Source: Polyangiaceae bacterium
Lineage (GTDB): Bacteria > Myxococcota_A > Polyangia > Polyangiales > Polyangiaceae
NCBI GenBank assembly: GCA_036488725.1
Contig: DASXHD010000111.1
Span: 1 to 16,759, forward strand
Length of the DNA stretch: 16,759 nt
Direction: 5' to 3'
A program made the position numbers and the translations under genes. A model generated the notes under the pieces. It was given only the letters and a program-made list of their open reading frames with translations. It had not been told where the DNA came from and made no database searches. Numbering within the stretch: position 1 is the stretch's first letter; every line of letters starts with the position of its first letter. Shown here piece after piece: positions 1-16,759 of this stretch.

Positions 1-1449
1 GACCGGCCCGACGAGCGCGCTCAAGAAACCTTCGTTTCGATAAAGCTCCTGCACGTGAGCGACGCCCTTGTCGTAGGTGTCGGGCGAGAACGTCGAGTCG
101 GGATCGAGATCGATCGGCGCGACGCGCGAGCCGCTGCCGCCGCCGAGCATGCGATCGACCGCGCTCGGATCCGGATCGGCGACGAGATCGGCGCCGGGTA
201 AATCCTCGTCGAGGAAGCTGTCGATCTCGCGGCGAATGGCCTTGGGCGAGCTCGGCCCGCCGTTCGACAGCCCGGAGATTTGCGCTTCGGTCACGCACGG
301 GTACTGCCGCGCGACGACGCGAACGCGCACACCTTCTTTGACGTGGAAGACGAGGAACCGCGTCGCGTCGGTTTTCTTGCCGGCGATCTCGAAGCCGACT
401 TGCGCGTCGAGAAAACCGCGCGTCTCGTAAAAGCGCCGGATTTTTTCGGCGAGGTGCTGCTCGCCGGTGTCGGGATCGGTGTCGAGGCCGAGCGCGTTTT
501 GGAGGGTGTCGTTGTCGTAGTGCTCGTTGCCGTCGAAGCGCGTTTGGTAACGCGGTCCGCTGTCGACGCGCACGCGCAGCGTGACGATCGACTCGTTCGG
601 ATATCGCGCAAGCACGAGATCGTGCTTCACCGCGGCTTCGTAATAACCGGCGGCGCGAAGCCGATTCTCGAGACCGACGTCGGCCGCTTGCAGCGCGGTC
701 GCGTCGGCGCGATCGCCGCGATCGATTTCGTAAGCTTTGGTGTAGCGGTCGAGCTCCTCGGGCTTCGCGCCGAACACGTAAAACACGCGGCGCCCGACTT
801 TGCGCGGCTCGCCGACGGTCACGTCGAGCAGAAGCAAAATGCGGCCTTCGCGATCCGTCTCGCGCATCGTGATGTCGACGCGCGACTCGGGAAAACCGCG
901 CCGCGCGAGGAGCGCGTGGATGCGACGTTTGCGCGGCGCGATCTCGTCGCCCTGGATTTCGCCGCCGTCCTCGAGCTGCGCCTCGTGGAGGATCTCTTCG
1001 CGGTCGATGGGTGCGTGATGCGTGTCGACGCGCAAGCCGTCGATGATTCGACGCGGCACGGCGCGCACGCGGATTCTTACGCCGTCGCCTTCGGGCATGA
1101 CCTCGACGCGCGCGGTTCCATAAAGGCCGGTGCCGAGCGCTTCGACCAGCGCGGCACGCGCGACCGTCGCGCCGAACGGCTCGCCGAGCTTGACCGACTG
1201 GAGCTTCGCCGGCGCGATGTCGTCCCACGGATCGCTCTCTTGCACGAGGTCGACGGCGCGCACCGGTTTTCCGTCGAACGCGCTCAAGTCCGGCGGCGTC
1301 AGCGGCATCCGCGGTGCGGCGAGCGTGAGCCGCGGCACGGCCGGCTCCTCGAGCGGCGTCACGCTGATGGGCCCGCCCGCAAACGCACGGCCGCCGTCGA
1401 TCAAAATCGCGAACGCGATGATGAGGACGAGCGCTTTACTGGAATTCAA
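1..1449 (-). CDS. Omp85/BamA-family outer-membrane protein insertase, N-terminal portion (signal peptide plus tandem POTRA domains); 3' end lies beyond the window start
   Basis: My own minus-strand translation; this gene is absent from the ORF track because it has a TTG start. It begins M(TTG)NSSKALVLIIAFAILIDGGRAFA, a textbook signal peptide, then runs >480 aa without a stop. POTRA-like beta-alpha-alpha-beta-beta units are visible (e.g. RIRVRAVPRRIIDGLRVDTHH..., LLLLDVTVGEPRKVGRRVFYVFGA, IVTLRVRVDSGPRYQTRFDGNEHYDNDTLQNALGL, FLVFHVKEGVRVRVVARQY). Third codon positions are GC-rich. GGTGGAG lies just upstream of the TTG. The TTG at 1449..1447 sits 9 nt upstream of the TamB stop at 1438..1436, a 14-nt overlap. 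An in-frame stop at 1497..1495 limits any upstream extension. Confidence 0.75.
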   Translation of the reverse strand, partial: MNSSKALVLIIAFAILIDGGRAFAGGPISVTPLEEPAVPRLTLAAPRMPLTPPDLSAFDGKPVRAVDLVQESDPWDDIAPAKLQSVKLGEPFGATVARAALVEALGTGLYGTARVEVMPEGDGVRIRVRAVPRRIIDGLRVDTHHAPIDREEILHEAQLEDGGEIQGDEIAPRKRRIHALLARRGFPESRVDITMRETDREGRILLLLDVTVGEPRKVGRRVFYVFGAKPEELDRYTKAYEIDRGDRADATALQAADVGLENRLRAAGYYEAAVKHDLVLARYPNESIVTLRVRVDSGPRYQTRFDGNEHYDNDTLQNALGLDTDPDTGEQHLAEKIRRFYETRGFLDAQVGFEIAGKKTDATRFLVFHVKEGVRVRVVARQYPCVTEAQISGLSNGGPSSPKAIRREIDSFLDEDLPGADLVADPDPSAVDRMLGGGSGSRVAPIDLDPDSTFSPDTYDKGVAHVQELYRNEGFLSALVGPV

Positions 1450-4400
1450 TTCTCCACCGCAAGTCGACGCCGAGGTTCCCGACTGCGCTGGATGTTACTT
1501 GATTGTTCACGTTGTCGTACGAGCCTTGCACGCTGAAATTCTTCCCGAGCTTCCACATGATGTTGGCGTAGAGCTCGTTGGTTCCCGAAACCGTCGTCGA
1601 CACGTTCGCGCTCACGTTCTGCGTGAGCCGTTTGCCGACGTTGAGCGTCGGCTCGTTGCGTCCCGTGTGCGGTGAGTACGCGCTGCCGACGCCGAACTCG
1701 TCGACGGGGACGACCTTGGTCACGGCCGACGACGTGCCGGTCACCGCGGAGAGCGCTTCGAGCGCGACCGACGCGCCGAGCGTGCCCGCTTGAATCTGAT
1801 CGGCCTCGGCGCGCGTGATGCCGACCGTGAGGAGGAGCACGATGTCCTCTTGCTGGAGCGGCGGATCGCTCGTGAGGTCGATCTTGAGATCGTTCGAGTC
1901 GCCGTAAGCGTGGAGCGCGATGCGCCAGGTCGTTCCCGTCGTGCTGCTCGTCGAGCTCGCGCCGCTGCTCTGGCTCGAGGTTCGTCGATATTCCGTCGTC
2001 GCTTGGATGTCGACGTGCGCCGCGATGCGCGTCGGGTCGTCGAAGCGCACGATCGCCTGCTGGATGTCGAACACGCTCGTCCCGAACGGCAGACGCAAGC
2101 GCCCGCCGGGGAGCGCGTGCATCTCGCCGCGGAGACCGAAGCGCTGGTTCGTGCCGGAGACGACGAGCCCATTTTCCAGGGCGATTTGCGCTTCGACGAG
2201 GTTGTTCTTGATGCGGAGCGGCGTCTTCGCGCGAACGCGAAGATCCATGCTGATCGCGTCGAGCGATGGATCGTACGTCTCGATTTCGGTGCGTTTGGCG
2301 GCGCCGAGCGCGCCGATGTCGCCCGCGACGTTGATCGGCCGCGTGTACTCGAGCGAGTCGATGACGACCTCGCCGGTCAAGTGCGGGAGCTTGCGTTTGT
2401 CGAGACCGCCGTCCTCGAAGGCGAGCGCGAGGTCGGCGTCGACGCCGGCGCTGATGCCGTCGGACGGCGCGAGCCGAACGTTGCGCGCGGCGAGCGTGAG
2501 CTCGGCGTTACCGAGGCCGAGGTTGCGAATGGGCACGCGCCCGCCGAGCGTGAGCGTGCCTCCCGAGAATTTCGCCGAGCCGTGCGCGACCCGAACCTCG
2601 GAAGCGTCGGCCCGTAAATCGATCGCGACGTCGTTGATCGGCGACGGCACGCCGCGAATCGCGAGCTCGCTCGCGCGCACGCTCGCCTGGCCGTCGACCT
2701 GCGGATCCGACGCGCGCCCGGTGACGCGCACGCTGCCCGAGAGCGAGCCCGCCGCGCGATCGAGCTTCGGCACGACGCCCGCGAGCACCGACAAATCCAC
2801 GGGCGCGAGATCGGCGCGCAAGTCGAGCGTCGGCTCGCCAAACGGATCTCGCACGCCGCCCTGCAACGTGACCGACCCGGTCACGCCCTGTCCAGCGGAC
2901 AAATCGAGCTCGACCGGCGGCAGCGTGACCTTGCCGTCGGCGAGGACGATCGGCGCGCTCGTCGGCTTGAGCACGAGCTTCTTGCCCTCGCTCTCGATCG
3001 ACAGCGACTCGGGCACGAACTTCGCGGACGCCGACGCGTAATCGCCTTGGCGGACGCGATCGATCATCACGTCGCCGGAGATCTGGCCGGTGAGCTTCGC
3101 GAGCGAGCCTTCGGTCTCGCCGGTCGCCTTCACGATCGAGTCGAGCGCGAGCTTGCGAAGCTTCACGTCGCCCGAGAGCTCCATCTGCTTCGCGCGCGAC
3201 GCCGTCACGTGATCGAGGTGCACCTGTCCGCCGAACAGATCGCCGGTGACGACGTACGTGCCATGCGACGACGCGTCTTTGGCGTACGCGTCTTTGTCGA
3301 ACGGCCCGCCGATGGGACCGCCGCAGGTCGTGTGCCCGACGATCTTCGTCTTCGACGGGAGCTGCGTCATCGTGAGATGCAGCTTCGACGCGCCGAGATC
3401 CGCGCCGCGAACGTGAATCGGCGAGACGTCGACGTCGGCATCGGCCGTGAACGCGTCGATCGTGCCGGTCACCTGCGCGAGGCCCGAGACGGTGCCCTCG
3501 AGCTCCGGCGCGATTTTTCCGAACGTCTGCAGGCGCGAGAGCGGCACGCCTTCGAGCACCACGTTGCCGCGCAAAACGCCGCCCGGCTTGATCGACGCCG
3601 ACCCGAGAAGCGAGCCGAACGTCGTCCCATCGCGCTCGCGCCGAACTTTGTGCAGCGTGAACGCGTGAACGTCGAGGTCGGCGCCTTGGAAGCCGGCGAG
3701 CCGATCGTTCCACCGCAAATCCAAATCGGCGTCGCCGTCGTCGAATTTTTCTCCGAACAAATCGACCGCGGAGAGGTGCGGGCTCGCGTGCAGCGAAATC
3801 GCGCCGCCGCCGCATTTGTCCTCCGGTCCGCCGAGCACGAAGTGAAGCGTCGTGTCGCCCGCGATGTTTCCGTCGATGCCGTCGAAGCGCGGGTCGTCGT
3901 TCAGCTTGAAGACGTCGAGGAGGTCGCGAACGTTGAGCACGTTGGCGCGCACGGCCGCGTCCATCTTCATGCTCGCGCCGCCGCCGAACTGCACGCGGCC
4001 CTGCGGCATCTCGTAGTTGCTCTTGTTCTTGTTCGCCTTCACGTCGGAGAGCGCGAGCACCTGCGCCTCGCCCTCGCGCGTGACCTCGGCATGCACCGAC
4101 GTGATGTTGCCGAACGCCATGTCGGCGAGCTGGAAACCGGTGACGCTCCCCTCGCCCGTCACCTTCGGGTCCATCATCTTCGGGCCGACGTCGATCTTCA
4201 CGTCACCGACGCCCGCGATCGGCACGCCCGCGAGCGGCGTGATGTCGGCGAGGTCGACGTGCGCCTTGGGGACCTGCACGCGAAAATCGTTGTGAAAGCC
4301 GAGCAGCACGAACCCGCCGGCGACGTGCGTGCGCGAAGTGTCGCCGCGCGCGTTCTGGAATTGCACCGAATCCGGCCGCACCGCGAGGTGCGCGGCGAGC

Positions 4401-5845
4401 TTCGCTTCGTTGAACCCGATGAGCCGCTGCCGCTGCGGATCTTTCACCCAGCGATCGAAGACGGCGAAGTTTCGCGTCGTCGTCGTGAAGTCGCCGTCGA
4501 GCTTGAGCGGGTCGAGCGTGCCGCCGAAATTCGGCATGTGGATGTCGACGACGTCCCACGCGACGTGCGGGTGCTGCGAGACGCCGAGGTCGGTCATGAG
4601 CTCGGCGAAGTCGATCGAGTCGATGTCGGCCGACGCGCCGAGCGTGTTGGCGAGCGGCTCGACGTGAACGCCCTTCAAGTGCACGGTGCCGCCGGCGAGC
4701 CTCACGGTCGTCTGCGGGCTTCGGATCACGTTGTTCGCCATCGCGATGTCGGCGTCGACCGAATCGGCGAAGTGAAACTGCGCGAGGCGAATGTCGCCCG
4801 CGGTGACCTTGCCGTTCACCTCGGGGAGCTGCATGCCCGGCGCGAGGCGCACGTCGGCGTCGAGCCCGACCCACCCGGTGAGCTCGGGCAGCTTCGCGAG
4901 ACGCGCCGCGACGCCGACCGGCGCGCGCACGCGCACGTGACCGCTGAAGTCGTTCGGGATCTCGCCTGGTTTGGGCAAACGCATCCGCGCGTGATTGAGC
5001 TCGAGCTCGACGCGTCGCTCGTCGTCGGCGGCGAGCTTGCACGGCGGAGTCGTCGCTTGCGCCGGGTCGAGGTCGGCGGCGCCGTGCATCTCGAGCCGCC
5101 GAACCGAGACCTCGTCGTTGGTGAGACGAACGCGCGCGTCGAGCGAGCACACGGCGTCCTCGTCGACGGCCTCCGCGTCGCGGTGCCGCACGACGTAACT
5201 CTCGCCGGCACGCAGCGCGACCTCGAGCGACGAGCCGCGCTCGGGGTCGTCGTCGTTCTGCACGTCGAGGTCGAGCTGATGCGCCTGCACGCGCACGTCG
5301 TCGATCGTCAAATCGACGTCACCGTCGGTGATCGAAAATCCATCGAACGGCAAGTGCAGCGGCCCCGACGATTTCTTCGACTCGGGCGGCTTGATCGCGA
5401 GGTTCTGGAGCTTGCCGTCCTTGAGGACGATGCGCGCGTGCGGCGCCTCGATGTCGATTTGCTCGATGAGGAGCTTGCCGCTCATCAGCGCGAAAAATCG
5501 CGGGCGCACGCTCGCGCGGCGCGCGGTCAGCGCGGGGCCGCCACCGTCGGACGACTCGATTTGCACGTTGGCGAGCTCGATCGAGAGCGGCCACAAATGC
5601 GGCACCACGTCGAAGCGCGCGACGATGCCTTGCTCGTGGAGCGCCTTGGCCGTCGCCCGCATCGCCCAATCGCGCGCGTACGCCGAGCGAACGAACCCAA
5701 TCGCCGCGAGCGGGAGGACCCCGGCGAGCGCGAGGACGAGCGACAATAGTCGCGCGAGCGCGCGCCCGATCCGCGGACCTCGCCGCCGCGGCTGCCGAGG
5801 AGGCGCCGGAAGGCTGGACGAGGCGACGGACGAGGGTCGATTCAC
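1436..5845 (-). CDS. tamB: TamB / AsmA-family translocation-and-assembly module protein (C-terminal DUF490)
   Basis: The ORF track gives 1436..6457(-). The C-terminus ...LGKNFSVQGSYDNVNNQVTSSAVGNLGVDLRWRIEFQ is TamB/DUF490-like. The first 204 codons of the track ORF are antisense to the trmH gene and Arg/Asp-rich, so I treat them as non-coding read-through. An N-terminal basic stretch plus one transmembrane helix (RRRGPRIGRALARLLSLVLALAGVLPLAAIGFV) is followed by a long beta-rich body. The start is uncertain: GTG 5845 (chosen), TTG 5908, or an internal TTG giving MSLVLALAG... Confidence 0.85.
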   Translation of the reverse strand: MNRPSSVASSSLPAPPRQPRRRGPRIGRALARLLSLVLALAGVLPLAAIGFVRSAYARDWAMRATAKALHEQGIVARFDVVPHLWPLSIELANVQIESSDGGGPALTARRASVRPRFFALMSGKLLIEQIDIEAPHARIVLKDGKLQNLAIKPPESKKSSGPLHLPFDGFSITDGDVDLTIDDVRVQAHQLDLDVQNDDDPERGSSLEVALRAGESYVVRHRDAEAVDEDAVCSLDARVRLTNDEVSVRRLEMHGAADLDPAQATTPPCKLAADDERRVELELNHARMRLPKPGEIPNDFSGHVRVRAPVGVAARLAKLPELTGWVGLDADVRLAPGMQLPEVNGKVTAGDIRLAQFHFADSVDADIAMANNVIRSPQTTVRLAGGTVHLKGVHVEPLANTLGASADIDSIDFAELMTDLGVSQHPHVAWDVVDIHMPNFGGTLDPLKLDGDFTTTTRNFAVFDRWVKDPQRQRLIGFNEAKLAAHLAVRPDSVQFQNARGDTSRTHVAGGFVLLGFHNDFRVQVPKAHVDLADITPLAGVPIAGVGDVKIDVGPKMMDPKVTGEGSVTGFQLADMAFGNITSVHAEVTREGEAQVLALSDVKANKNKSNYEMPQGRVQFGGGASMKMDAAVRANVLNVRDLLDVFKLNDDPRFDGIDGNIAGDTTLHFVLGGPEDKCGGGAISLHASPHLSAVDLFGEKFDDGDADLDLRWNDRLAGFQGADLDVHAFTLHKVRRERDGTTFGSLLGSASIKPGGVLRGNVVLEGVPLSRLQTFGKIAPELEGTVSGLAQVTGTIDAFTADADVDVSPIHVRGADLGASKLHLTMTQLPSKTKIVGHTTCGGPIGGPFDKDAYAKDASSHGTYVVTGDLFGGQVHLDHVTASRAKQMELSGDVKLRKLALDSIVKATGETEGSLAKLTGQISGDVMIDRVRQGDYASASAKFVPESLSIESEGKKLVLKPTSAPIVLADGKVTLPPVELDLSAGQGVTGSVTLQGGVRDPFGEPTLDLRADLAPVDLSVLAGVVPKLDRAAGSLSGSVRVTGRASDPQVDGQASVRASELAIRGVPSPINDVAIDLRADASEVRVAHGSAKFSGGTLTLGGRVPIRNLGLGNAELTLAARNVRLAPSDGISAGVDADLALAFEDGGLDKRKLPHLTGEVVIDSLEYTRPINVAGDIGALGAAKRTEIETYDPSLDAISMDLRVRAKTPLRIKNNLVEAQIALENGLVVSGTNQRFGLRGEMHALPGGRLRLPFGTSVFDIQQAIVRFDDPTRIAAHVDIQATTEYRRTSSQSSGASSTSSTTGTTWRIALHAYGDSNDLKIDLTSDPPLQQEDIVLLLTVGITRAEADQIQAGTLGASVALEALSAVTGTSSAVTKVVPVDEFGVGSAYSPHTGRNEPTLNVGKRLTQNVSANVSTTVSGTNELYANIMWKLGKNFSVQGSYDNVNNQVTSSAVGNLGVDLRWRIEFQ

Positions 5846-5944
5846 GAGCTCTTGCGTTGGACGAAAGTCCCCGGGAAAGCGTAGCTCCGAACCCCTAGCA
5901 GGCCACAATTTCAGGGATTTGATACTGTATTTTACGAAGCGACC
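5846..5944. promoter_or_regulatory. Divergent intergenic region between tamB (-) and trmH-grpE-dnaK (+); locally AT-richer
   Basis: This is the only ~100-bp non-coding stretch in the left half of the window. It contains ...ggccacaatttcagggatttgatactgtattttacgaagcgacc just before the ATG at 5945. Composition drops well below the window average. Confidence 0.45.
5873..5899 (+). promoter_or_regulatory. Candidate sigma-32-like heat-shock promoter (GGGAAA-N13-CCCCTAGC) upstream of trmH-grpE-dnaK
   Basis: Sequence gggaaa gcgtagctccgaa cccctagc compared with the sigma-32 consensus TTGAAA-N13-14-CCCCATNT. The -10-like element matches CCCCnnnn strongly; the -35 match is partial. The motif lies about 45 nt upstream of the trmH ATG. 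Confidence 0.25.
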
Positions 5945-6649
5945 ATGCGCAGAACCACCGCCGGTGTAGTCGACGCGGACGCGCTCTTGCCCGCGCGAAT
6001 TGCCCGCGCGGAAAAGCACGAGCCCGAGGACGTGATTCGCGTGCTCGAGCCGCTCGTCCTCGAGCGTCGTCGTGAGCGTTTGCTCGCCGTGATCGATTCG
6101 CGTCTCGCGAGCGTGACGGTGCTCTTCGATGCGCCGCACGATCCCTTCAACGGCGCCGCGGTCGTGCGATCGTGCGAAGCGTTCGGCGTGCAGACGATTC
6201 ACGTGGTCGAGCGAAGAGAGCGATTTCTCGCGGCGAGCTCGGTCGCGCGCGGCGCTCAAAAATGGGTCGACATCGTTCGTCACCCGACGTCCCACGAAGC
6301 CGTCGGCGCGCTCCGCGAGAGCGGCATGGCGCTCGTCGGCGCGCACCCCGCGGGCGAGCTTTTGCCCGAGGATTTGGCCAAAATCCCGCGGCTCGCGCTC
6401 GTCCTCGGCAACGAACGCGACGGGATCACGGCCGAGCTCGAGGCCGCCTGCACGCACCGCGTCCGCGTTCCGATGCGCGGATTCGTCGACAGCTTGAACG
6501 TGAGCGTGACCGCCGCGATCCTGCTCGATCGCGCCGTCCGCGAGCGTCCCGGCGACCTCTCCGAGCCCGAAAGACGCAGGCTCTACGCTCGCGGACTTTA
6601 TTTTTCTGTGCAGAAAGCCGAGAGCATACTTACGCTGTGCGACACATGA
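5945..6649 (+). CDS. SpoU/TrmH-family RNA 2'-O-ribose methyltransferase (SPOUT class)
   Basis: 234 aa. It carries the SpoU motifs [10 protein letters not shown] (motif 2) and [19 protein letters not shown] (motif 3). It lacks an N-terminal L30e-like domain, so it is TrmH/TrmJ-like rather than RlmB-like. Its stop TGA overlaps the grpE ATG as ATGA. Confidence 0.8.
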
Positions 6650-7191
6650 GCGATCCGCAGGACACGACTACGGACCAAAAAGAAGCGCGGGACGAGTCGA
6701 ACGAAGAGCCGGCGCCGGAGCTGACCGCGCCGAGCGAGCTCGAGCGCGCGCAGGAAGAAGCGGCGAAGCTGAAGGACATGCTCGTCCGCACGGCGGCCGA
6801 CTTCGACAATTTCCGAAAGCGCACGCGCCGCGAAATCGACGAAGCCAAGCGCCAGAGCCGCGAAGAGCTGCTCAAGGAGTTGCTGCCGGTCTTCGACAAC
6901 CTCGAGCGCGCGATTCAAAGCGCGCAGAAGGCGACCGACGTCAAAGCCGTCGCGGACGGCGTCGGGATGATCTTGAAGCAATTCGAGGGCACGCTCAGCC
7001 GCGCGGGAATCGCGCGTGTTCCGACCGTCGGCACGATGTTCGATCCATCGATGCACGAGGCGATTCAGCAAATCGAAACCGACGAGCAGCCTCCGGGCAC
7101 GGTCGTGGCGGAAGTGCAGCCCGGTTATCGCGAAGGCGAGCGCCTGGTTCGCGCCGCGATGGTCGTGGTCGCGAAGCCGAAGTCGAGCTGA
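6646..7191 (+). CDS. grpE: GrpE nucleotide-exchange factor
   Basis: 181 aa. It has an acidic N-terminal tail, then [23 protein letters not shown], the GrpE paired-helix signature, and the C-terminal beta domain [32 protein letters not shown] 6646-6648 overlaps the trmH stop at 6647-6649. Confidence 0.9.
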
Positions 7192-7208
7192 TATCGTAGG
7201 CCCCTCGA

Positions 7209-9077
7209 ATGGGGAAGATCATCGGCATCGACCTCGGCACCACGAACTCGTGCGTGGCCGTCGTGGAGACCAACGTCTCCGCCGGTGCAGCCAAAACCGC
7301 GAAGCTCGAGGTTCGGATCATTCCGAATTCCGAGGGCGCGCGCACGACGCCGTCGGTCGTCGGCTTTCCCGTCAGCGGCGAGCGCCTCGTCGGCCAAGCC
7401 GCCAAGCGCCAGTCGGTCACCAACGCGACGAACACGGTCTACGCGGTGAAGCGCTTGATGGGCCGCAAGTTCAAGGACGAAGAGGTCCAGCGTCAGCTCA
7501 AGGCCGTGCCGTACAAAATCATGGACGCGCCGAACGGCGACGCGTGGGTCGCGCTCGGCGGCCGCGAGATGTCGCCGCCCGAAGTGTCGTCGTACGTCCT
7601 CGGCAAGATGAAAGAGATCGCCGAAGCCTTCCTCGGCGAGCCGGTCACCGAAGCCGTCGTCACCGTCCCCGCGTACTTCGACGACGCGCAGCGCCAGGCG
7701 ACCAAAGACGCCGGAAAAATCGCCGGCCTCGACGTCAAACGAATCATCAACGAGCCGACGGCCGCAGCGCTCGCCTACGGCCTCGAGAAAAAACAAACCG
7801 AGCGCGTCGCCGTTTACGACCTCGGCGGCGGCACGTTCGACATTTCGATCCTCGAGATCCAGAGCGGCGTCTTCGCGGTCAAGGCGACCAACGGCGACAC
7901 GCACTTGGGCGGCGAGGATTTCGATCAGCGATTGATCGACGCGATCGCCGACACGTTCCAAAAAGAGAACGGCGTCGATTTGCGCAAAGACCGCATGGCG
8001 CTTCAACGTTTGAAAGAAGCATCGGAGAAGGCAAAACACGAGCTTTCGTCGTCGCTCGAGACCGAGATCAATCTGCCTTTCGTCGCGACGAGCACCAAGG
8101 GCGAACCGCTCCACGTCGTGCGCACGCTCACGCGCGCCGACTTCGAGCTCCTCACGCAAGACCTGATCGACTCGACGCTCGACCCGTGCAAGAAGGCGCT
8201 CGCCGACGCGAGGCTCACGCCCGCCGACATTCACAACGTGGTCCTCGTCGGCGGCATGACGCGCATGCCCGCGGTGCAGCGCGCGGTGAAAGAGTTCTTC
8301 GGCAAAGACCCGCACAAAGGCGTGAACCCCGACGAGGTCGTCGCGGCAGGCGCCGCGCTCCAAGGCGCGGTCTTGCAAGGCGAAGGCAACGTCGAGGTCC
8401 TCTTGCTCGACGTCACGCCGCTCTCGCTCGGCGTCGAAACCGGCGGCGGCGTCTTCACGCCGCTCATCGGGCGCAACACGACCATCCCGACCGAAAAGAG
8501 CGAGGTCTTCACGACCAGCGTCGACAACCAGTCGTTCGTGCCGATCCACGTTCTTCAAGGCGAGCGCACGATGTCGGCCGACAACCGCTCGCTCGCGCGC
8601 TTCGAGCTCACCGGCATTCCCCCGGCGCCGCGCGGCGTGCCGAAGATTCAGGTCACGTTCAAGATCGACGCGAACGGCGTCGTCTCCATCGAAGCCAAAG
8701 ACCTCGGCACCAACCGCGTGCAGACGATGAAGATCACGTCGACGAGCGGGCTCTCGCAAGACGACGTCACGCGCCTCGTGGCCGAGGGCGAAAAATTCCG
8801 CCAAGCCGACGACATGCGCCGCGAGCTCGCCGAGCTGAAAAACCAGGCCGAAACCCTCCTCTACACGACGAGCGCCGCCCTCGACGGCTACGCCGATTTG
8901 GTCGAGGCCGACGTGCTCGAGGGCGCCCGCAAACAAGCCGCGCACCTCCGCGCCCTCCTCGAAGAGGCCGGCGACGTCGCCCAAATCCGCGAGGCGCACC
9001 AGACGCTCGAGGCGATGGTCTTCGCGATCGCCGAAAAGATGTACGGCCCCGCCGAGGGGGAGAACCCGCCGGCGTAG
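7209..9077 (+). CDS. dnaK: Hsp70 chaperone DnaK
   Basis: 622 aa. [18 protein letters not shown]..., [25 protein letters not shown] and [14 protein letters not shown] are collinear with E. coli DnaK over the full length. Compared with E. coli there is a short insertion near residues 20-30, and the long acidic C-terminal tail is absent. Confidence 0.97.
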
Positions 9078-9085
9078 CGCGCGAT

Positions 9086-9094
9086 GCTATAATC
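9086..9094 (+). promoter_or_regulatory. Perfect TATAAT hexamer 7-8 nt upstream of the LeuA-like ATG (possible leaderless promoter)
   Basis: gcgatgcTATAATcaaaggcATG lies in the 23-nt gap after the dnaK stop. No Shine-Dalgarno sequence can fit between the hexamer and the ATG. Position is +/-1 nt because of the print/track discrepancy noted in the summary. Confidence 0.3.
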
Positions 9095-9100
9095 AAAGGC

Positions 9101-10359
<1,259 letters not shown>

Positions 10360-10360
<1 letters not shown>

Positions 10361-10836
10361 TGCGGCGCGCGGCGGCGGTCGTCTTTTGCAGCGCGTGCGT
10401 CGTCGGGCCCAAGCTCGTCTCGGCGCCGATGCTCTCTTCGGTGCCGGTCGCAGAGGTGACGATCGACGCGAGCGCGGGCGACGACGCGGAGGCCCCGCCC
10501 GAGGAGACGCCAGCTCGGCTCGAAGGCTCGTGGACTGGTCACGCATGGCAGACCGGCAACTCGTCGTTCACGCTGAACGTCACGTTCGAGTCGCGCGGCG
10601 CCGACGTCGTCGCGCAGGTGCATTATCCGGAGCAACATTGCCGCGCCGAATGGCGACTGCGGCGCGGCGAGCACCAGCAGTGGGTCGGCGAAGAGAACGT
10701 CCTCGTCGATCCGTTCACGCGATGCCCGCGGCGCGGTCACGTGATCGTGACGCCAGCCGAGGACGGCACGCTCCATTGGAACTGGACGGCGCCCGGCCGC
10801 TCGGCAACGGCCAACCTCGAACGCGAGCAACCCTGA
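10360..10836 (+). CDS. Small secreted or lipid-anchored protein of unknown function (158 aa)
   Basis: The ATG at 10360 overlaps the TGA of the upstream gene (tTGATG); the track lists a TTG at 10357. N-terminus MRRAAAVVFCSACVVG is signal-peptide-like with a possible lipobox-like Cys. The mature part is Trp-rich (HWNWTAPG, SWTGHAWQTG) and has two Cys residues (EQHCRAEW, TRCPRRGH). Third codon positions are strongly GC. No family recognised. Confidence 0.6.
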
Positions 10837-10850
10837 ATCGAGCGCGTCCG

Positions 10851-11462
10851 ATGGGGCGCGTGCTCTTTTCGATTCTCGGTCCGAATCGCTGCGCGGCGTG
10901 CGATGCGCCGGCGCGCGAAGAAGTCGTCTTTTGTCCGGGTTGCGCGGCGACGGTCGAACGATCGAGCGATCCGCGCGCGCCGTTCGTGTACGGCGGCGCG
11001 ATGTCGAACGCGATCACGCGATTCAAATACGGTCCAACGCCCGAGCTCGCGCGGCCGCTCGGCGCGCTCCTCGCGGCCGAAGCTCGTGGGCGATTCGATC
11101 ACGTCGACGCGGTCGTGCCGGTGCCGCTTCATCCGTCGCGTCTCTTCGAGCGAGGCTTCAACCAAGCGGTGCTTCTCGCGCGGCCGGTCGCGCGGGCGCT
11201 CGGCGTTCCGCTTCGTGCGCGCGCACTGGCGCGTACACGACCGACCGAACGCCAAGCCGAGCTCGATCGCAGCGCGCGCCTTCAAAACGTCGCAGGCGCT
11301 TTTCGTGCGCGGCGACCGACGAACGAACGAATTTTGCTGATCGACGACGTGAGAACGACGGGCGCCACGCAAAACGCTTGTGCCGAAGCCCTGCGTGGTG
11401 CGGGCTCGCCGCGCGTGGATTGCCTCGTTCTCGCCATCGCGCCGGCAATGGCATACCCTTAG
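10851..11462 (+). CDS. ComF-family protein (double zinc-ribbon plus phosphoribosyltransferase domain)
   Basis: 203 aa. N-terminal CAACDAP...CPGC is two CxxC pairs forming a zinc ribbon. The C-terminal PRTase fold ends ERILLIDDVRTTGATQNACAEAL, a PRPP-binding loop. This is ComFC/GntX-like. The real ATG at 10851 lies inside track ORF 10386..11462. Confidence 0.8.
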   Translation: MGRVLFSILGPNRCAACDAPAREEVVFCPGCAATVERSSDPRAPFVYGGAMSNAITRFKYGPTPELARPLGALLAAEARGRFDHVDAVVPVPLHPSRLFERGFNQAVLLARPVARALGVPLRARALARTRPTERQAELDRSARLQNVAGAFRARRPTNERILLIDDVRTTGATQNACAEALRGAGSPRVDCLVLAIAPAMAYP

Positions 11463-11477
11463 ATATCTCCTCTCCCC

Positions 11478-14135
11478 GTGAGCAATCAGACCGAATGGCG
11501 GTGGGCCGATCCGGCCGGACAGCAGCGTCTCGTCCGTGAAGACGAGCTGCGTGCTGCGCTCAGGAGCGGCGCGATTCCGGCGAACGCGCCGGTCTGGACG
11601 CGCGGGTGGAAGGCTTGGCGGCCGGCCAACGAGGTCGCGGAGCTGACGGGAAAAATCGAGGCGCCGGCCAATGGCGCCGACGTGCCGCCGCCGCCGAATT
11701 TCATCGTCGCCGCGCAAGACGCATTCGAAGGAAAGCCCGCGCCCGCGCCGACGGGTCCCGCGGAGCCGCCCGCGCCGCCGCGTTACGTGCCGATCGCGCC
11801 GACGACGCAGCCGCAGATCCCGAAGGCGCCGAATTCGGACACGCGCGTCGACGCGAAAGTGGCGCCCTTGCCGAGCCCGAAGCCGCCGACGTCACTGCCG
11901 CCGACCGTCCAAGCGCGGCCCCCGACGAAAGCGCCGCCGCCGCTCCCGCCGGCCGCGCGCAACGCCGCGAAAAAGAGCAGCGCGCCGCCGCCGCTGCCGC
12001 CAGCAGCGAAACGATCGCAGCCGACGATGAAGGCGACGCCCGCGCCGCCGAAGGTCGCGACGAGCGCGGCGACGAACCTCGCGAAGACCGCGCCGTCACC
12101 GGGCACGACGACCAAGCCGATGCATCCGGCGCAGCCGAGCGCGTTCACGCACACGCAGCGTCCGCCCGCGGGTGTGGCGCCGCCCGCGGGCGCGCTCTCG
12201 TCGCCGCCTTCCGGGCGGACCACGCTTCAAGTCGCGCCGGCGCCCCCGCCGATGCCGAAGCTCGATCCGATGCCGAGCGCGCCGCAGCCGCCGCCCAAGG
12301 AGGCGAGCAGCAAGTTTCCGACGCTGCTCATGTTCGACGAGGCGCCGAGCGCGCTGCCGCCGCCGCCGACGACGCCCGATGAGGAGACCGAAGAAGCGCC
12401 GCCGATCGTCGTGCCGCCGCCCGAGCCGAGCAACATGACGAACGCCGTCACGCGTCCGCCGCCCTGGGGCGAAGGCGCCGTCGAGATGGACACGCGCATT
12501 CCCAAGTCGCCGGCGGTGCCGGCCGTCGGGAGCGAGACGCGGCCGTCGGACGCGCCGCCGCGGCCGGTCGAGCTGAGCTCGTCCGATTTGACGTCGGAGG
12601 CGCGCATCGAGGTCGTGAAGGCGGCGCCGCTCGCGCCCGCCGAGCGACCGCACGCGACGATGCAAGGCCTCGGGCCGGGCGCGCTCGGAGAAAATCGCGC
12701 GCTGCTCGAAAAAGCGATTCATGCGTCGCCGCCGCCCGCGCCGCTCTCTGCGAGCGACGTCGCTTCGACGACGAAGTGGCAAGCGCAATCCGAAGACGTG
12801 CCGGAGCCTGCGCCGATTCCGCCTTCGCCGAGCGGCGCGAAGCTTCACGATCTGCGCGCGATTGCGGCGCAGCGCGCGCAGGGAGCCGCCGAGCGCGCGC
12901 GTCACGCGTGGGATGATCTCCGCGAGCGCACGAAAGACAAGCCGCGTTGGTTCTTGCCGGTGATCGCGGGAACCTCGGCGTGCGTGCTCGTCATTCTTTT
13001 CGCGGCCGGCGTGAAAGAGCTCATGGGCTCCGGATCGACCGCGTCCAGCGCAGCGACCACGGCCACGACCACGGCGCCCGCGACGGCCACGGCAGCGACG
13101 ACGGCCGCGGCCACGGTCGCGACGACCGCGCCAGTCGCGCCCGCGCGCCCGATGGAGTGCACGACCGCCGGCTCGCCGCGGACCGTCGCGCCGAAAGCGC
13201 TCGTCGGGAGCGGCGTGGAGGTCACCGACGTCGGAGGAAAAGTCGCGCTCGGCTTCGCGGCTGCGCCGAAAGAAGCGACGCTCGAAATCGTCGATCCCCA
13301 GACGACCGCGTCGCTCGGGTCGCTTCATCTTCCCGAAAACGCGAAAGTGCGTCGCGTCGTCGCGCTCGACGACAAGAAGATGGCGGTCGATCTCGATCGC
13401 AAAGGCGATCCGCTGCAAGGCCGCCGCACGCTCCGCGCGGCGACGCCGATCGATCTGGGCGCGACCGAAGACGGGCTCGCGTGGGCGCCGCTCGCGAGCG
13501 ACAAGAGCGTGAAGCTTTGGCCGCTCCCGAGCGCGGATCAACCCGTCGAATCGCTGCGCGGCGAGCCGCTACCCAACGCCGCGGGATTCGCGATCGCGTT
13601 TCGTCACGCGGGCGCGATTTGGTTCGGCGCGTTCGGAGGCACGCCGCCGGCGCCGCTCGGTTCGCTCCTGCACGTCGACGGCCTCGGGCCGAAGATCGGC
13701 TCGCCCGCGGTCGCTGCGAGCGGCGATCGCATGATGGTCGCGTGGGCCGACCGCGCGACGAAAGACGATCCGTGGTCGGTGCGCTACGCGTTCTTCCGCC
13801 CGAGCGACGCGACGGCGCAGTCCAAGACGTTCAGCCTCGGCGGCGGTGCGCCCGAGCGCGCGATGTCGCCTTCGCTCGCGCCGCTCGGTGGCGGCCGCTT
13901 CCTCTTCGTGTGGACCGGGTGCCCCGAAGGCGTGGCGTGCCAAGTGCGCGGCGTCGTCTTCAACGCCGACGGCACGACGACCGCGCCGTTCACCGCGTCG
14001 TCCGAGGACGTCAACGCCGGCCAAGGCCAAGCCGCCGTGCTCGCCGACGGTCGCGGCGTCGTCGCGTTCCTCGCGGCGACCGGCAAGCACAGCTTCGAAG
14101 TGCACGCGACGCCCATCCACTGCGCGGAGAAATAG
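11478..14135 (+). CDS. Bitopic membrane protein: N-terminal DUF4339 (GYF-like) domain, ~430-aa Pro-rich cytoplasmic tract, one transmembrane helix, Thr/Ala linker, ~330-aa beta-rich repeated periplasmic domain
   Basis: 885 aa with a GTG start. Residues 5-57 EWRWADPAGQQRLVREDELRAALRSGAIPANAPVWTRGWKAWRPANEVAEL match the DUF4339 pattern W..ad..Gqq.gp.s..eL..l..sG.i.p.t.VW..GM..W.pa.ev.eL. Residues 60-490 are 25-30% Pro with PPPLPPAA repeats. The transmembrane helix is WFLPVIAGTSACVLVILFAAGV (aa 491-511). The Thr/Ala linker spans aa 521-556. The C-terminal domain has three ~45-aa repeats (..GDRMMVAWADR.., ..GGGRFLFVWTGCPEG.., ..DGRGVVAFLAATGKH..). Confidence 0.8.
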   Translation: MSNQTEWRWADPAGQQRLVREDELRAALRSGAIPANAPVWTRGWKAWRPANEVAELTGKIEAPANGADVPPPPNFIVAAQDAFEGKPAPAPTGPAEPPAPPRYVPIAPTTQPQIPKAPNSDTRVDAKVAPLPSPKPPTSLPPTVQARPPTKAPPPLPPAARNAAKKSSAPPPLPPAAKRSQPTMKATPAPPKVATSAATNLAKTAPSPGTTTKPMHPAQPSAFTHTQRPPAGVAPPAGALSSPPSGRTTLQVAPAPPPMPKLDPMPSAPQPPPKEASSKFPTLLMFDEAPSALPPPPTTPDEETEEAPPIVVPPPEPSNMTNAVTRPPPWGEGAVEMDTRIPKSPAVPAVGSETRPSDAPPRPVELSSSDLTSEARIEVVKAAPLAPAERPHATMQGLGPGALGENRALLEKAIHASPPPAPLSASDVASTTKWQAQSEDVPEPAPIPPSPSGAKLHDLRAIAAQRAQGAAERARHAWDDLRERTKDKPRWFLPVIAGTSACVLVILFAAGVKELMGSGSTASSAATTATTTAPATATAATTAAATVATTAPVAPARPMECTTAGSPRTVAPKALVGSGVEVTDVGGKVALGFAAAPKEATLEIVDPQTTASLGSLHLPENAKVRRVVALDDKKMAVDLDRKGDPLQGRRTLRAATPIDLGATEDGLAWAPLASDKSVKLWPLPSADQPVESLRGEPLPNAAGFAIAFRHAGAIWFGAFGGTPPAPLGSLLHVDGLGPKIGSPAVAASGDRMMVAWADRATKDDPWSVRYAFFRPSDATAQSKTFSLGGGAPERAMSPSLAPLGGGRFLFVWTGCPEGVACQVRGVVFNADGTTTAPFTASSEDVNAGQGQAAVLADGRGVVAFLAATGKHSFEVHATPIHCAEK
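11931..12008 (+). repeat. In-frame tandem duplication encoding APPPLPPAA(R/K) twice (27-nt units, ~80% identical, 24-nt spacer)
   Basis: 11931-11957 gcgccgccgccgctcccgccggccgcg versus 11982-12008 gcgccgccgccgctgccgccagcagcg. Translated: PTKAPPPLPPAARNAAKKSSAPPPLPPAAKRS. Confidence 0.6.
13038..13145 (+). repeat. Low-complexity (ACS-GCS)n tract encoding a Thr/Ala-rich linker just outside the transmembrane helix
   Basis: Translates to SSAATTATTTAPATATAATTAAATVATTAPVAPARP. The nucleotide sequence is dominated by acg/gcc/gcg/acc triplets. Confidence 0.6.
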
Positions 14136-14966
14136 ATGCAACATACACGCACCTCGTTCTTCGTCGGTTTGGTTCTCTGCGCGAGCTGCGCGCTCTTCGA
14201 GCCGCAGTCGAAAATCCGCGCGGGCGAAGCCTTCACGACCGGGCAAGCGCAGTACGACGACTATTTCGGCAAAGTGCACACGCTGCAGCTCGCCGCGGCG
14301 AGCTGGGCCGATCAAAAGAAAGCGACGCGCCGCAACTTGATCGACGCGCTCAAGATCGCGACCGATGCGCCCGACGTGACCATCGTCGAGGCGACGCACG
14401 AGCGCATGGTCGCCGCGGCACACATCGTCGGCTCGACGCACCTCGAGCTCCGCGAGGACGAAGGCAAGCTCGTCGTCGCCGCCGAAGGACGCGCCGACGG
14501 TCCGACGCAAGATTTCTTGAAGGCGGTGCGCGCGACGATCGACGGCGAGATGAAGCGCAAGCGCGACATGCAGGACGTTCCGCAAAAGTGCGACGACCTC
14601 GCGAAGGCCGGGCGCGATCTCGAGCCGCACGTGAAAGACGACTTCTTCCGCCAGGGCGGCACGATGATGGCCGACGTCCACGACGAGATCGAAGCGTCGT
14701 TCGACGTGCTCGGGCAGCTTTCGAAGACCGCGCGCATCGAGAAGCGCGAGACCGAGGACTTCGTCGCGGATCTCGCGCGTGCCGTCGAGGCGAGCCCGGG
14801 CGAGCCGATTCACACGACCGTGATCGCGCCGACGACGACGACGAGCCACCCGGCTTCACATCCGAAGCCGCCTCCGGTCGCCGAAACCGCGCCGGTCGCA
14901 CCGAAGCCGAAACCCAAGCCGAAGCCGCAACCCGCCGGCGGCGGCGGCGACGACTTCAATCCCTAA
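14136..14966 (+). CDS. Putative lipoprotein with acidic helical body and C-terminal (KP)4 / Pro-rich tail
   Basis: 276 aa. MQHTRTSFFVGLVLCASC|ALF matches the PROSITE lipobox for Cys18. The ATG directly abuts the TAG of the upstream gene (gagaaaTAGATG) with GGAG 7 nt upstream, suggesting coupled translation. The C-terminus is HPKPPPVAETAPVAPKPKPKPKPQPAGGGGDDFNP; the KP repeat is at 14901..14933. Confidence 0.75.
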   Translation: MQHTRTSFFVGLVLCASCALFEPQSKIRAGEAFTTGQAQYDDYFGKVHTLQLAAASWADQKKATRRNLIDALKIATDAPDVTIVEATHERMVAAAHIVGSTHLELREDEGKLVVAAEGRADGPTQDFLKAVRATIDGEMKRKRDMQDVPQKCDDLAKAGRDLEPHVKDDFFRQGGTMMADVHDEIEASFDVLGQLSKTARIEKRETEDFVADLARAVEASPGEPIHTTVIAPTTTTSHPASHPKPPPVAETAPVAPKPKPKPKPQPAGGGGDDFNP

Positions 14967-16249
14967 TTCCGGGCGAATTTCTCGGACGGGAACTTCTGCG
15001 ATGCGGCTTCGAGGTGCGTCGCGACCATGTCGGCGGTGATCGTGATCGGCAAGAGGTCGCGCGTGCCGTCGGGCATCACGATGAGGTAGACCGGGATGCC
15101 GGTGCGACCCGTCGTGTCGAGGAGCGCCGAGAGCTCGTCGTTGTCGTTCGTCATGTCGACGCGCATCGGGAGGATGTTCGTCTTGCTGAGCGCGCCGCGG
15201 ACCGTGTCGGTCTCGATGAACGCGTGCTCGTTCGCTTTGCACGTCGCGCACCACTCGGCCGTGAAATCGAGCAGCACGGGCCGCCCGCGCTTTCCTTCGG
15301 CCTTCACCCGGCTCGCGTCGTACGGCGTCCACGCGATGTGACCGTCGACGATCACCGGCGGGTCCATCGAGCCCTTCGCGACCGGAACGTCGGCCGCGAT
15401 CGCGACCGTCGGCTTCACGAACGAGATCGACCAGTAGCCGACGAGCACGAGCGCGCCGACTTGCACGCCGCGCACGATCCAACGACGCGCGGGCTCGGCC
15501 GCGACGCCGCCGTAACGATTGCCGAACCAGAGCGCGACCGCGAGCGCGAGGAGGAAGATGAGGAACGAGTTCGACGACGCCGGCGTCACCTGCACTTGGA
15601 GCGTGCGGAACAGCCAAATCGCGGTGCCGAAGAGCGCGAAGCCCATCACCGTCTTGACCGTCTCCATCCAGCGGCCGGGCCGCGGGAGGATTTTCGAGAA
15701 CGACGGGATGAACGTGATGATGAGATACGGAAGCGCGAGCCCGACACCGATGAACGCGAAGATGAGGATCGTCTTCCACGCGGGCACGTCGGAGCCGAGC
15801 GCGACTGCGGCGGCGGTGCCGAGGAACGGCGCCGAGCACGGCGTCGAGAGGAGCGCGGCGAAGAGACCGTTCACGACCGAGCCGAGGAACTTGTCGTCGT
15901 CGCCGCCCTCGGCGCCCGACGACACGTTGAGCTCGAACACGCCGACCGAGTTCAGCGCGAACGCGAAGACGATCGCGGTCATCGTGGCGACGAAGGCGGG
16001 GTGCTGAAACTGCATGCCCCAACCGAGCCTGTGGCCCGACGCCTTCACGGCGATGATCACGACCGCGAGCGCGATGAACAGGCTCATCGTGCCGATCGTG
16101 TAGGCGATGCCGTGCATCCGGCGCTTGTGCGCGTCGTGGCGCGCGTGGTCGACGACGCTCATCGCTTTGAGCGCGAGCACCGGCAAGACGCACGGCATCA
16201 CGTTCAAGATGAGTCCGCCAAGGAGAGCGAGGGCGAGTGTCGCGATCAT
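14963..16249 (-). CDS. dsbD: DsbD-family thiol:disulfide interchange protein, beta (CcdA-like TM) plus gamma (thioredoxin) domains, no alpha domain
   Basis: 428 aa. Transmembrane Cys motifs NVMPCVLPVL and LSTPCSAPFL are DsbD/CcdA hallmarks. The C-terminal thioredoxin domain has WCATC. The protein begins directly with a transmembrane helix (MIATLALALLGGLIL), so there is no N-terminal periplasmic alpha domain. Its stop TAG (cta at 14963-14965) overlaps the TAA of the convergent lipoprotein gene (14964-14966). Confidence 0.85.
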   Translation of the reverse strand: MIATLALALLGGLILNVMPCVLPVLALKAMSVVDHARHDAHKRRMHGIAYTIGTMSLFIALAVVIIAVKASGHRLGWGMQFQHPAFVATMTAIVFAFALNSVGVFELNVSSGAEGGDDDKFLGSVVNGLFAALLSTPCSAPFLGTAAAVALGSDVPAWKTILIFAFIGVGLALPYLIITFIPSFSKILPRPGRWMETVKTVMGFALFGTAIWLFRTLQVQVTPASSNSFLIFLLALAVALWFGNRYGGVAAEPARRWIVRGVQVGALVLVGYWSISFVKPTVAIAADVPVAKGSMDPPVIVDGHIAWTPYDASRVKAEGKRGRPVLLDFTAEWCATCKANEHAFIETDTVRGALSKTNILPMRVDMTNDNDELSALLDTTGRTGIPVYLIVMPDGTRDLLPITITADMVATHLEAASQKFPSEKFARN

Positions 16250-16353
16250 CAGTGACCTCTACGTTGGCTTTTGCAAGGCTCAGGCCTCACGAGGAGTGAG
16301 CTTAGCACGAGAAAACCGCGAGAAAAGCGGCGTGGTTCGCTTCGGATCCAGGA

Positions 16354-16759
16354 TCAGTGTTCCGCCATTTTCGCCAGCGTGGCCTTCGCCATCTTGAGCT
16401 CCGGCTCGAGCGCAATCGCGGTCGGCGCAGGTGACGACTCGGTGCGTCGAACGAACGCGTCGAGATACTGTCGAGCCGCGCGAAACTCGCGCGCGGCGTA
16501 GGCGAGATGGCCGAGCACGAACCGGCCGTAGCCTTGTCCGCACGGCGCGGCCGCGAGATCGTCGATCGCGCCCTGCACATCCGTGTCGTGCACGCCGGCC
16601 GCGATGCGAACGAGCGCGAGCTGCGCACGGTAGAGCGGTCTGTCGGTCGTCGCCCATCGAACGGCGCGCTCGAGCGCAGCCGCTGATTCTTCGTAGCGCT
16701 CGGCGTGGAAGAGCGTCGAGCCGAGCGTCCACCAATGAAACGATCGGCGTGACGCGGGC
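16354..16759 (-). CDS. TPR-like repeat protein, C-terminal fragment (5' end beyond the window)
   Basis: My own minus-strand translation. The track lists 79 aa from GTG 16593, but the frame stays open to the window edge: ...FHAERYEESAAALERAVRWATTDRPLYRAQLALVRIAAGVHDTDVQGAIDDLAAAPCGQGYGRFVLGHLAYAAREFRAARQYLDAFVRRTESSPAPTAIALEPELKMAKATLAKMAEH. Helical-repeat (TPR-like) periodicity is visible and third codon positions are GC-rich. Confidence 0.55.
   Translation of the reverse strand, partial: PASRRSFHWWTLGSTLFHAERYEESAAALERAVRWATTDRPLYRAQLALVRIAAGVHDTDVQGAIDDLAAAPCGQGYGRFVLGHLAYAAREFRAARQYLDAFVRRTESSPAPTAIALEPELKMAKATLAKMAEH

Follow-up and report, generated by a model that had tools for sequence, protein, structure and literature searches.

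A conserved gene unit of Polyangiaceae and their relatives, predicted to encode a ComF-like protein, a GYF-bearing membrane protein with a periplasmic beta-propeller, and a companion lipoprotein

We analyzed a stretch of DNA of 16,759 nt from a Polyangiaceae bacterium (assembly GCA_036488725.1, contig DASXHD010000111.1), here called the window, and in it two adjacent genes, gene A, which encodes a protein with a GYF domain and a beta-propeller, and gene B, the lipoprotein gene downstream of it. Together with the ComF-like gene that adjoins A upstream, they constitute a module whose reality and conservation are solid. The ComF-like gene was absent from the two-gene account given in an earlier note on this DNA, and its conserved position marks it as a predicted member of the unit. 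We judge it about an even chance that the comF-like gene, A, and B form one co-transcribed unit, which would build a membrane-anchored two-compartment scaffold or receptor. The parts of the unit, in amino acids (aa) and nucleotides and with the G+C content at third codon positions (GC3), are as follows.

10851-11462, + strand: ComF-like gene, 203 aa, ATG at 10851, adjoining A upstream
11478-14135, + strand: gene A, 885 aa, GTG start, GC3 0.86
11478-11657, + strand: GYF_2 domain, A residues 1-60 (PF14237 match at residues 21-56)
11658-12947, + strand: Pro-rich tract, A residues 61-490, 23.5% Pro
11667-11792, + strand: post-GYF motifs NG..PPPP...VA.Q..FE and EPP.PP.YVP, A residues 64-105, at least 80% column identity in 17 class 1 orthologues (classes defined below)
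12948-13016, + strand: transmembrane (TM) helix, A residues ~491-513, Kyte-Doolittle peak 2.36, the sole hydropathy window above 1.6
13017-13145, + strand: Ala/Thr/Ser-rich periplasmic stalk, A residues 514-556, with Tandem Repeats Finder (TRF) arrays at 13057-13139
13146-14132, + strand: predicted seven-bladed beta-propeller, A residues 557-885
13158-13160, + strand: invariant Cys561 of A
14121-14123, + strand: invariant Cys882 of A
14126-14129, + strand: GGAG, putative ribosome-binding site for B, within the last codons of A
14136-14966, + strand: gene B, 276 aa, ATG start, GC3 0.86
14187-14189, + strand: lipobox Cys18 of B, with signal peptide
14901-14933, + strand: PKPKPKPKPQP run, B residues 256-266, a (CCGAAG)n repeat, AlphaFold confidence score (pLDDT) below 50
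14949-14963, + strand: C-terminal motif D-D-F-N-P of B, family consensus D-E-V-F-N-P

The G+C content of the window is 65-74%. In-frame GC3 is 0.86 for both A and B, whereas it is 0.56-0.71 for the long open reading frames (ORFs) that overlap them on either strand. This contrast indicates that A and B are real coding frames, in agreement with the earlier note, which had placed two adjacent genes here. The ORFs at 12947-16255 (+), 12096-13541 (-), and 13569-14849 (-) were rejected as noncoding by the same measure. The start of A, M/V-S-N..W-R-W-A-D-P, is common to its orthologues. Database gene calls nevertheless shorten the gene: in two related loci (L006:51-2807 and L007:1273-4029), 640 aa are called for a protein that is really of ~918 aa and whose frame opens with V-S-N-Q-T-E-W-R-W, and in a third (L005:6878-9536), A is split by a frameshift in the gene calls. 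Such truncation by automatic calls, which is frequent, probably accounts for the many database entries without a GYF domain.

For the comparison, 39 loci were fetched, some of them redundant, and classed by tblastn; all come from Polyangiaceae, Labilithrix, or unclassified Myxococcota metagenome-assembled genomes (MAGs). A scan of one genome per species, which used one peptide pattern and so does not prove absence elsewhere, found 31 loci, all from MAGs of this group except for that of Labilithrix luteola DSM 27648. Three classes were distinguished.

Class 1 (21 loci, plus L037, where the N-terminus of A lies off the contig; includes L. luteola, locus L021, NZ_CP012333.1, ~2.518-2.532 Mb): comF-like gene, GYF-bearing A, B, then usually a convergent DsbD-like gene
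Class 2 (14 loci): comF-like gene, A with a Pro-rich N-terminus without GYF, no B
Class 3 (2 loci): shorter propeller paralogue without GYF, B, or comF, the preceding gene encoding a VWA-domain protein whose signal peptide is lipoprotein-like

Each GYF-bearing A (21 loci, several redundant) is followed directly by B, and the 39 loci include none with GYF but not B, or with B but not GYF. Downstream of the GYF-less A of class 2, no substitute co-directional lipoprotein was found. Co-occurrence of the two genes in other genomes, on which the earlier note had staked its reading, was seen in every GYF-bearing orthologous locus examined. Members of the B family were seen only beside A in the loci examined. 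The family comprises 89 clusters of homologues, all of them strong, with no match in the range from E=1e-44 to 0.01, and it is sharply limited to the same lineage. For the propeller, a word-indexed search returned 57 clusters and an exhaustive one 727 representatives at E<=1e-3, 147 of these below 1e-30. In essentially all of the best 150 of the 727 homologues, the propeller forms the C-terminal domain; where these 150 are full-length, it is preceded by a disordered N-terminal region and a single TM helix. The only other domain found fused to it was a sigma-70 region 2 fragment (P0235), probably a gene-call or assembly artefact. Named sources of homologues are nearly all Polyangiaceae, Labilithrix, or unclassified Myxococcales/Myxococcota MAGs; a 451-aa propeller homologue (P0055) is labelled as coming from a Thermoplasmata archaeon MAG.

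All class 1 and class 2 loci with upstream DNA available have the ComF-like gene directly before A. The comF-A linkage is more widely conserved than the A-B pairing; the conserved unit is thus comF-A, with B added in the GYF-bearing lineage. In the 27 loci of these two classes with a measurable gap, comF and A share a strand and are -4 to ~90 nt apart, save for a single locus at 321 nt. In the window, no promoter-like sites were found between comF, A, and B, and terminator-like sites are at chance level. In Labilithrix-group loci, a conserved GCGCTATCATG element is situated between comF and A, ~10-20 nt before the ATG of A (L003:7976-8015, L023:1245-1284, L038:4976-5028, L039:4812-4851; also L002, L016, and L021), and may act as an internal promoter or regulatory site of the unit. 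The ComF-like protein itself has a four-Cys zinc ribbon (C14, C17, C28, C31; CxxC...CxxC) and a phosphoribosyltransferase-like domain with the ILLIDDVRTTGAT motif present. Its best family matches are ComF and GntX, both under the curated cut-offs (NCBIfam TIGR00201 comF, 85.8 bits versus 233.55; GntX, 93.4 versus 304), and in Pfam it scores 25.5 for Pribosyltran (PF00156; cut-off 26.3) and 22.4 for DZR_2.

At the other junction, the TAG of A (14133-14135) abuts the ATG of B (14136), so that B does start on the base after the stop codon of A, as the earlier note had said, with the GGAG lying six bases before the ATG. The same junction of 0 nt, GGAGAA(A/G)TAx-ATG, is present in five loci (the window, L006, L010, L011, and L032), and the remaining A-B junctions are overlaps of 4 or 16 nt or gaps of 10-66 nt; abutting genes and the two overlaps together account for the majority of loci. 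An abutting or overlapping junction with the ribosome-binding site inside A is kept down to ~42% identity in the propeller and 27-33% in B. Translation of B is, on this arrangement, predicted to be coupled at its start to the stop of A.

The layout of the gene A protein is a GYF domain, a Pro-rich tract, a TM helix, a stalk, and a beta-propeller. Its N-terminus, described earlier as DUF4339/GYF-like, is assigned by profile match to Pfam GYF_2 (PF14237, formerly DUF4339), residues 21-56 aligning to profile positions 15-50 of 50 with 30.5 bits versus a curated cut-off of 25.8, and the W-R-W-A-D-P-x-G-Q-Q stretch before the match completes the GYF pattern. In the 17 class 1 orthologues, the pattern W-x-W....G-Q-Q...E-L...G-x-I.....V-W..G-W..W.....V-x-E-L is kept, and the GYF is the best-conserved portion of the cytoplasmic region of A. 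The conserved parts among class 1 orthologues are only the GYF, the segment just behind it, and the propeller.

The Pro-rich tract, of ~430 aa as the earlier note had it, is probably disordered and carries PPLP at residues 154 and 171. The link that had been drawn between the GYF and the PPLP repeats of its own tract failed a covariation test. PP[LIVM]P motifs are enriched solely in the near relatives of the window, they are absent in 7 of the 8 Labilithrix-group proteins that retain GYF and B (the eighth, L021, has one, no more than chance), and they are present in some GYF-less relatives. As PP[LIVM]P does not track the GYF, PPLP was dropped as the built-in ligand of the domain. Other short motifs are common to the window's A and the GYF-less class 2 proteins, namely, PPIVVP, PPWGEGA....IPK, and E-E-L/I-S-G/S-S-x-L (ELSSS/EELSGS; EELSGSxLxED). 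Instead of GYF, the class 2 proteins have an N-terminal K-T-V-V-G-V-P-A-L-P, in a start of the form V-S-A-D-K-D...K-T-V-V-G-V-P-A-L-P (examples at L019:4378-6990, L028:4243-6990, and L029:1471-4068). Overall, to judge from its motifs, the cytoplasmic tail of A looks like a disordered scaffold bearing several docking peptides.

The TM helix is the only strongly hydrophobic segment in A, and the single span proposed in the earlier note stands. It is flanked on its N-terminal side by the basic RERTKDKPRW, and a juxtamembrane K/R-W-F-L-P motif is conserved at the helix in homologues. At residues 474-502, Pfam gave a sub-threshold match to FixP_N (17.1 bits), which we discounted as an artefact of the TM region. 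As A has no N-terminal signal peptide and one TM helix with a basic N-terminal flank, the predicted topology is N-in, C-out, and the placement of the propeller and B in the periplasm is well supported. A homologue in which the same propeller stands directly behind a lipoprotein signal peptide (P0279, ..LALTAGC), without TM helix or tail, likewise places the propeller in the periplasm. Over the TM helix and stalk together (residues 491-556), Ala makes up 30% and Thr 21%. The Ala/Thr stalk of A (in part) and the Pro/Lys tail of B are encoded by short tandem repeats in the DNA (periods 6, 12, and 18) at 13057-13139 and 14862-14927, and both probably change length readily by slippage.

Whereas the earlier note had seen three ~45-aa beta-rich repeats in the periplasmic domain, there are really seven blades of ~47 residues. 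The structural model is confident, all-beta, and superposes on seven-bladed propellers over nearly its full length. Its fold matches include L-rhamnose-alpha-1,4-D-glucuronate lyase (score 22.4), PL25 ulvan lyase (21.3), integrin alpha (~21), and PLL-type lectins and WD40 proteins (~20), with an identity of 5-12% to all of them. In this model, the likeness is at the level of fold and not to any single family. The propeller gave no match in Pfam, NCBIfam, or the sequences of the Protein Data Bank (PDB), where the search returned low-complexity matches only, and no sequence-level profile match to the known propeller families (PL25-type lyases, sialidases, PLL lectins, WD40, and FG-GAP). Strong homology to a stand-alone enzyme family, which would have told against the earlier note, was therefore not found, the fold-level likeness being shared by enzymes, lectins, integrins, and WD40 proteins alike.

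Two invariant cysteines, Cys5 and Cys326 of the domain (Cys561 and Cys882 of A), lie on the first and last strands, and a disulfide between them may lock the propeller ring closed, which would be consistent with a periplasmic propeller. Conserved loop motifs are D-x-D-R-K-G-D-x-L-x-G-R-R, W-A-D-R-A....P-W, and N-A-G-Q-G-Q. A large set of charged or polar residues is conserved family-wide (E25, R70, D84, K86, D88, R93, R94, R138, R153, D202, R203, R213, E258, H265, R268, N290, Q293, and Q295 in domain numbering), and these are common to the classes with and without B. By a strand register obtained by aligning the recurring G-x-h-h-h-A-W motif to the DSSP string, and so inferred rather than measured on coordinates, several of the conserved residues would lie on innermost strands and top-face loops, suggesting a candidate functional site at the central channel of the propeller.

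The protein of gene B is 100% identical to VGH28_27905 of a Polyangiaceae MAG. It is a predicted lipoprotein with a signal peptide, and Cys18 is kept in at least 90% of 29-31 homologues, most of which have L/V-A/S-G/A/S-C; the lipobox of the window's B, L-C-A-S-C, is non-canonical at position -3. Residues 38-218 form a helical bundle with one beta-hairpin in the AlphaFold model and have a net charge of about -9, which agrees with the acidic helical body of the earlier description. On the first helix, the cluster Y40-D41-x-Y43-F44-x-x-V47-H48-x-x-Q51 is nearly invariant. Residues 219-276 are predicted to be disordered and are Pro/Lys-rich but variable, with a Gly run, and they end in D-D-F-N-P, of which F274 and P276 are invariant in the family and N275 invariant or nearly so. 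The PKPKPKPKPQP tail that had been called rigid-looking is present in the sequence, but its rigidity is not borne out, since the run is short, variable, and of low pLDDT; moreover, it is situated at the C-terminus and not between the lipid anchor and the body. The B family has no Pfam or NCBIfam match, and a PDB sequence search gave low-complexity matches only. A PspA match on B (21 bits versus 850) was dismissed as Pro-rich or coiled-coil composition. The stop codon of B overlaps that of the convergent DsbD-like gene by 4 nt (14963-14966), leaving no space for a terminator. A DsbD-like gene is downstream in most class 1 and class 2 loci, and in L005 a MopE-like copper-binding gene sits between B and DsbD.

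How might the parts work together? In the reading we favor, A would be inserted N-in, and its GYF and the short conserved motifs of its tail would recruit cytoplasmic partners, as the GYF of GltJ recruits the Pro-rich segment of AglZ. On its flexible Ala/Thr stalk in the periplasm, the propeller would bind, and possibly process, an envelope ligand, for which the conserved charged surface round the central channel (E, D, R, H, and Q residues common to all classes) may be the site. B would be an accessory periplasmic subunit of the GYF-bearing lineage that probably docks on A, perhaps by means of the invariant F-N-P peptide at its tethered C-terminus. The outcome would be an envelope event linked to proteins assembled on the cytoplasmic tail.

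Several observations weigh against this reading. The class 2 proteins keep the whole propeller site without B or another co-directional lipoprotein, which indicates that B is not needed for the core function of the propeller. Just seven positions separate class 1 from class 2 propellers, with no obvious cluster, and a B-binding surface defined by residues specific to the B-bearing class was rejected for this scatter. A neighbor-joining tree of the propeller separates class 2 from class 1, each in a clade of its own, and places class 3 within that of class 1. With essentially a single split and a paralogue, the covariation of GYF and B amounts to about two events and is weak statistical evidence, the correlation being, on this tree, close to one evolutionary event. 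The synteny kept for long in one lineage (comF, A, DsbD-like, and TPR-like) could also be inherited order rather than a functional link.

The trans-envelope connector of the earlier note, in which A is an inner-membrane anchor and B an outer-membrane lipoprotein, and in which the tail of B and the stalk of A bridge the periplasm and tie the outer membrane mechanically to cytoplasmic adaptors, seems to us unlikely, though to be taken seriously. In Myxococcus xanthus, a Lys at position +2 is the retention signal of inner-membrane lipoproteins (PMC3222651). The +2 residue of B is Ala, and an outer-membrane location of B may be suggested from the missing Lys alone; the distant homologues of the Labilithrix group have Asp or Asn there, however, and the M. 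xanthus sorting rule may not hold in Polyangiales. The tail of ~55 residues and the stalk of 43 could together span the periplasm, the genes are tightly coupled, and the terminal F-N-P of B resembles a docking peptide. On the other hand, the KP run is of ~11 residues, differs between homologues, and is predicted to be disordered, the TM helix of A has neither His nor a motor-coupling motif of the Ser-His-Leu-Ser type, and profile scans of A and B found no TonB_C, OmpA-like, or peptidoglycan-binding domains; class 2 proteins, moreover, function without B. Less probable again is an enzymatic role, in which A would be a periplasmic enzyme anchored in the membrane (a polysaccharide lyase or hydrolase, for instance, or some other catalyst of propeller fold with envelope or secreted polymers as its substrate) and B its regulator, inhibitor, or chaperone. 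The invariant charged residues from E25 to Q295 form an unusually large set, and several would lie, by the DSSP-based register, on innermost strands and top-face loops; yet no solved structure or enzyme family matches in sequence, and a cytoplasmic adaptor tail of 490 residues is unusual for such an enzyme. That A and B are functionally unrelated, their coupling reflecting compact gene packing in a high-GC genome, is very improbable: it would agree with the class 2 orthologues that lack B and with a covariation of about two events, but not with a junction held together at the low identities given above or with a B family that, in the loci examined, was seen only beside A and that is bounded to the same lineage.

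A further alternative, to which we give a slim chance, makes A the membrane partner of the ComF-like protein: by keeping ComF at the inner membrane, the tail of A would couple a periplasmic sensor or anchor to the uptake or handling of DNA, or to some other function of ComF. The comF-like gene is directly upstream of A in all class 1 and class 2 loci with upstream DNA, often with a 4-nt overlap, this linkage is wider than that of A and B, and PriA is found two genes upstream of comF in Labilithrix-group loci. In Helicobacter pylori, ComFC associates with the membrane by way of its zinc finger and of a partner identified only in part (PMC9005727). Against this, the ComF-like protein scores under the curated family cut-offs, the window holds no other competence genes (comEC, comEA, or dprA), ComF-like genes are present in many non-competent bacteria, and adjacency in one order may be inherited, the class 3 paralogues not being beside comF. 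A bolder form, that comF-A-B in Polyangiales is a membrane platform for the ComF-like protein, where this zinc-finger/phosphoribosyltransferase protein would be held at the inner membrane by the A tail and GYF while the propeller and B connect it to an envelope structure, is speculative and equally doubtful. If true, comF-A-B would be a previously unrecognized envelope-coupled ComF module and could explain the membrane association of ComFC-type proteins in diderm bacteria.

The other genes of the window are the following.

1-1494, - strand: POTRA-domain protein, partial, start at or slightly below 1494, BamA/TamA-like, extending past the window edge
1436-6457, - strand: TamB-like gene
7209-9077, + strand: DnaK (HSP70, 804 bits)
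9119-10360, + strand: HMGL-like protein of the isopropylmalate/citramalate/homocitrate-synthase type
10357-10836, + strand: 159-aa protein with a signal peptide, supported by GC3, 74% identical to a 160-aa gene product in L005
14963-16249, - strand: DsbD-like gene
16363-16759, - strand: TPR-like protein, partial

The POTRA-domain and TamB-like genes, which overlap or abut at 1436-1494, are an outer-membrane biogenesis pair beside the unit under study, and their adjacency to it is not kept in other loci. An ORF of 1114 aa at 7016-10360 is spurious, its frame having stayed open owing to the high G+C content, and the true genes there are DnaK and the HMGL-like gene; an ORF of 358 aa at 10386-11462 was ruled out as a single gene by GC3 and homology, in favor of the two genes at 10357-10836 and 10851-11462.

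Among known systems, the gene A protein is most readily compared with GltJ of the Agl-Glt gliding machinery of M. xanthus. Each combines a GYF_2 domain close to the N-terminus with a long flexible stretch in the cytoplasm, one membrane span, and a module outside the cytoplasm; both come from Myxococcota, and the likely logic is alike, a GYF recruiting a proline-rich partner; in GltJ, the GYF binds a proline-rich segment of AglZ (Attia et al. 2024, PMC11135422). The differences are clear. GltJ has a zinc ribbon N-terminal to the GYF, joined to it by a switch linker, whereas in A the GYF begins at residue 1-6, residues 1-60 lack Cys, and Pfam gave no match to a Zn ribbon. Profile scans of the window proteins found no glt, agl, or mgl genes near A, and related loci are similar. 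The earlier comparison with GltJ, made outside a glt context, was a fair one. The periplasmic module of A is a seven-bladed propeller of a family without a Pfam entry, and lipoprotein and comF-like genes are attached. With no zinc ribbon, no glt context, and another periplasmic module, A is not a GltJ orthologue. The earlier statement that the pair falls under no family holds for the propeller and B, neither of which has a Pfam or NCBIfam family, but a general layout with a GYF at the N-terminus and a membrane receptor module is common in bacteria and was already described (PMC11135422).

Sequence comparison likewise makes neither A nor B a relative of TonB, TolB, or Pal. The TolB-Pal system resembles A-B in having a periplasmic beta-propeller and a lipoprotein from the next gene, but TolB is soluble and six-bladed with an N-terminal alpha/beta domain, and Pal has an OmpA-like peptidoglycan-binding domain, whereas the propeller of A is seven-bladed and TM-anchored and B is a helical bundle without such a domain. 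With TonB, A-B shares a Pro/Lys-rich periplasmic segment and the idea of spanning the periplasm. In TonB, an (EP)n(KP)n rod belongs to an inner-membrane-anchored protein and is followed by TonB_C, and the TM helix has a motor-coupling motif; in B, the KP run of ~11 residues is at the C-terminus of a lipoprotein, and Pfam/NCBIfam profiles gave no TonB_C match in A or B. LpoA/LpoB with PBP1A/PBP1B are like B in that a lipoprotein has a long disordered tether able to reach a partner in the other membrane. The linker of LpoB follows the lipid anchor, while the tether of B is C-terminal and ends in a conserved peptide, and there is no sequence or fold relation. The integrin alpha chain, with its seven-bladed propeller and the VWA-like domain of the beta subunit, is similar to A at the level of fold only (7-12% identity), and the module of the window is without a VWA partner.

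In conclusion, two unannotated protein families are defined here, that of the propeller (727 representative clusters) and that of the B lipoprotein (89 clusters), and the comF-A-B unit is present in the cultured L. luteola DSM 27648, where genetics may be feasible. If the ComF link is functional, the unit would bear on the means by which ComFC-type proteins of Gram-negative bacteria are kept at the membrane; otherwise, comF-A-B is a lineage-restricted envelope module. To our knowledge, bacterial GYF proteins have been studied experimentally only in GltJ. Next to it, A would represent a second GYF family with a well-predicted structure, in which a GYF, a disordered scaffold, a TM helix, and a periplasmic propeller are accompanied by a dedicated lipoprotein and a fixed ComF-like neighbor, and which could serve to test whether GYF-capped membrane proteins are general inside-outside adaptors.

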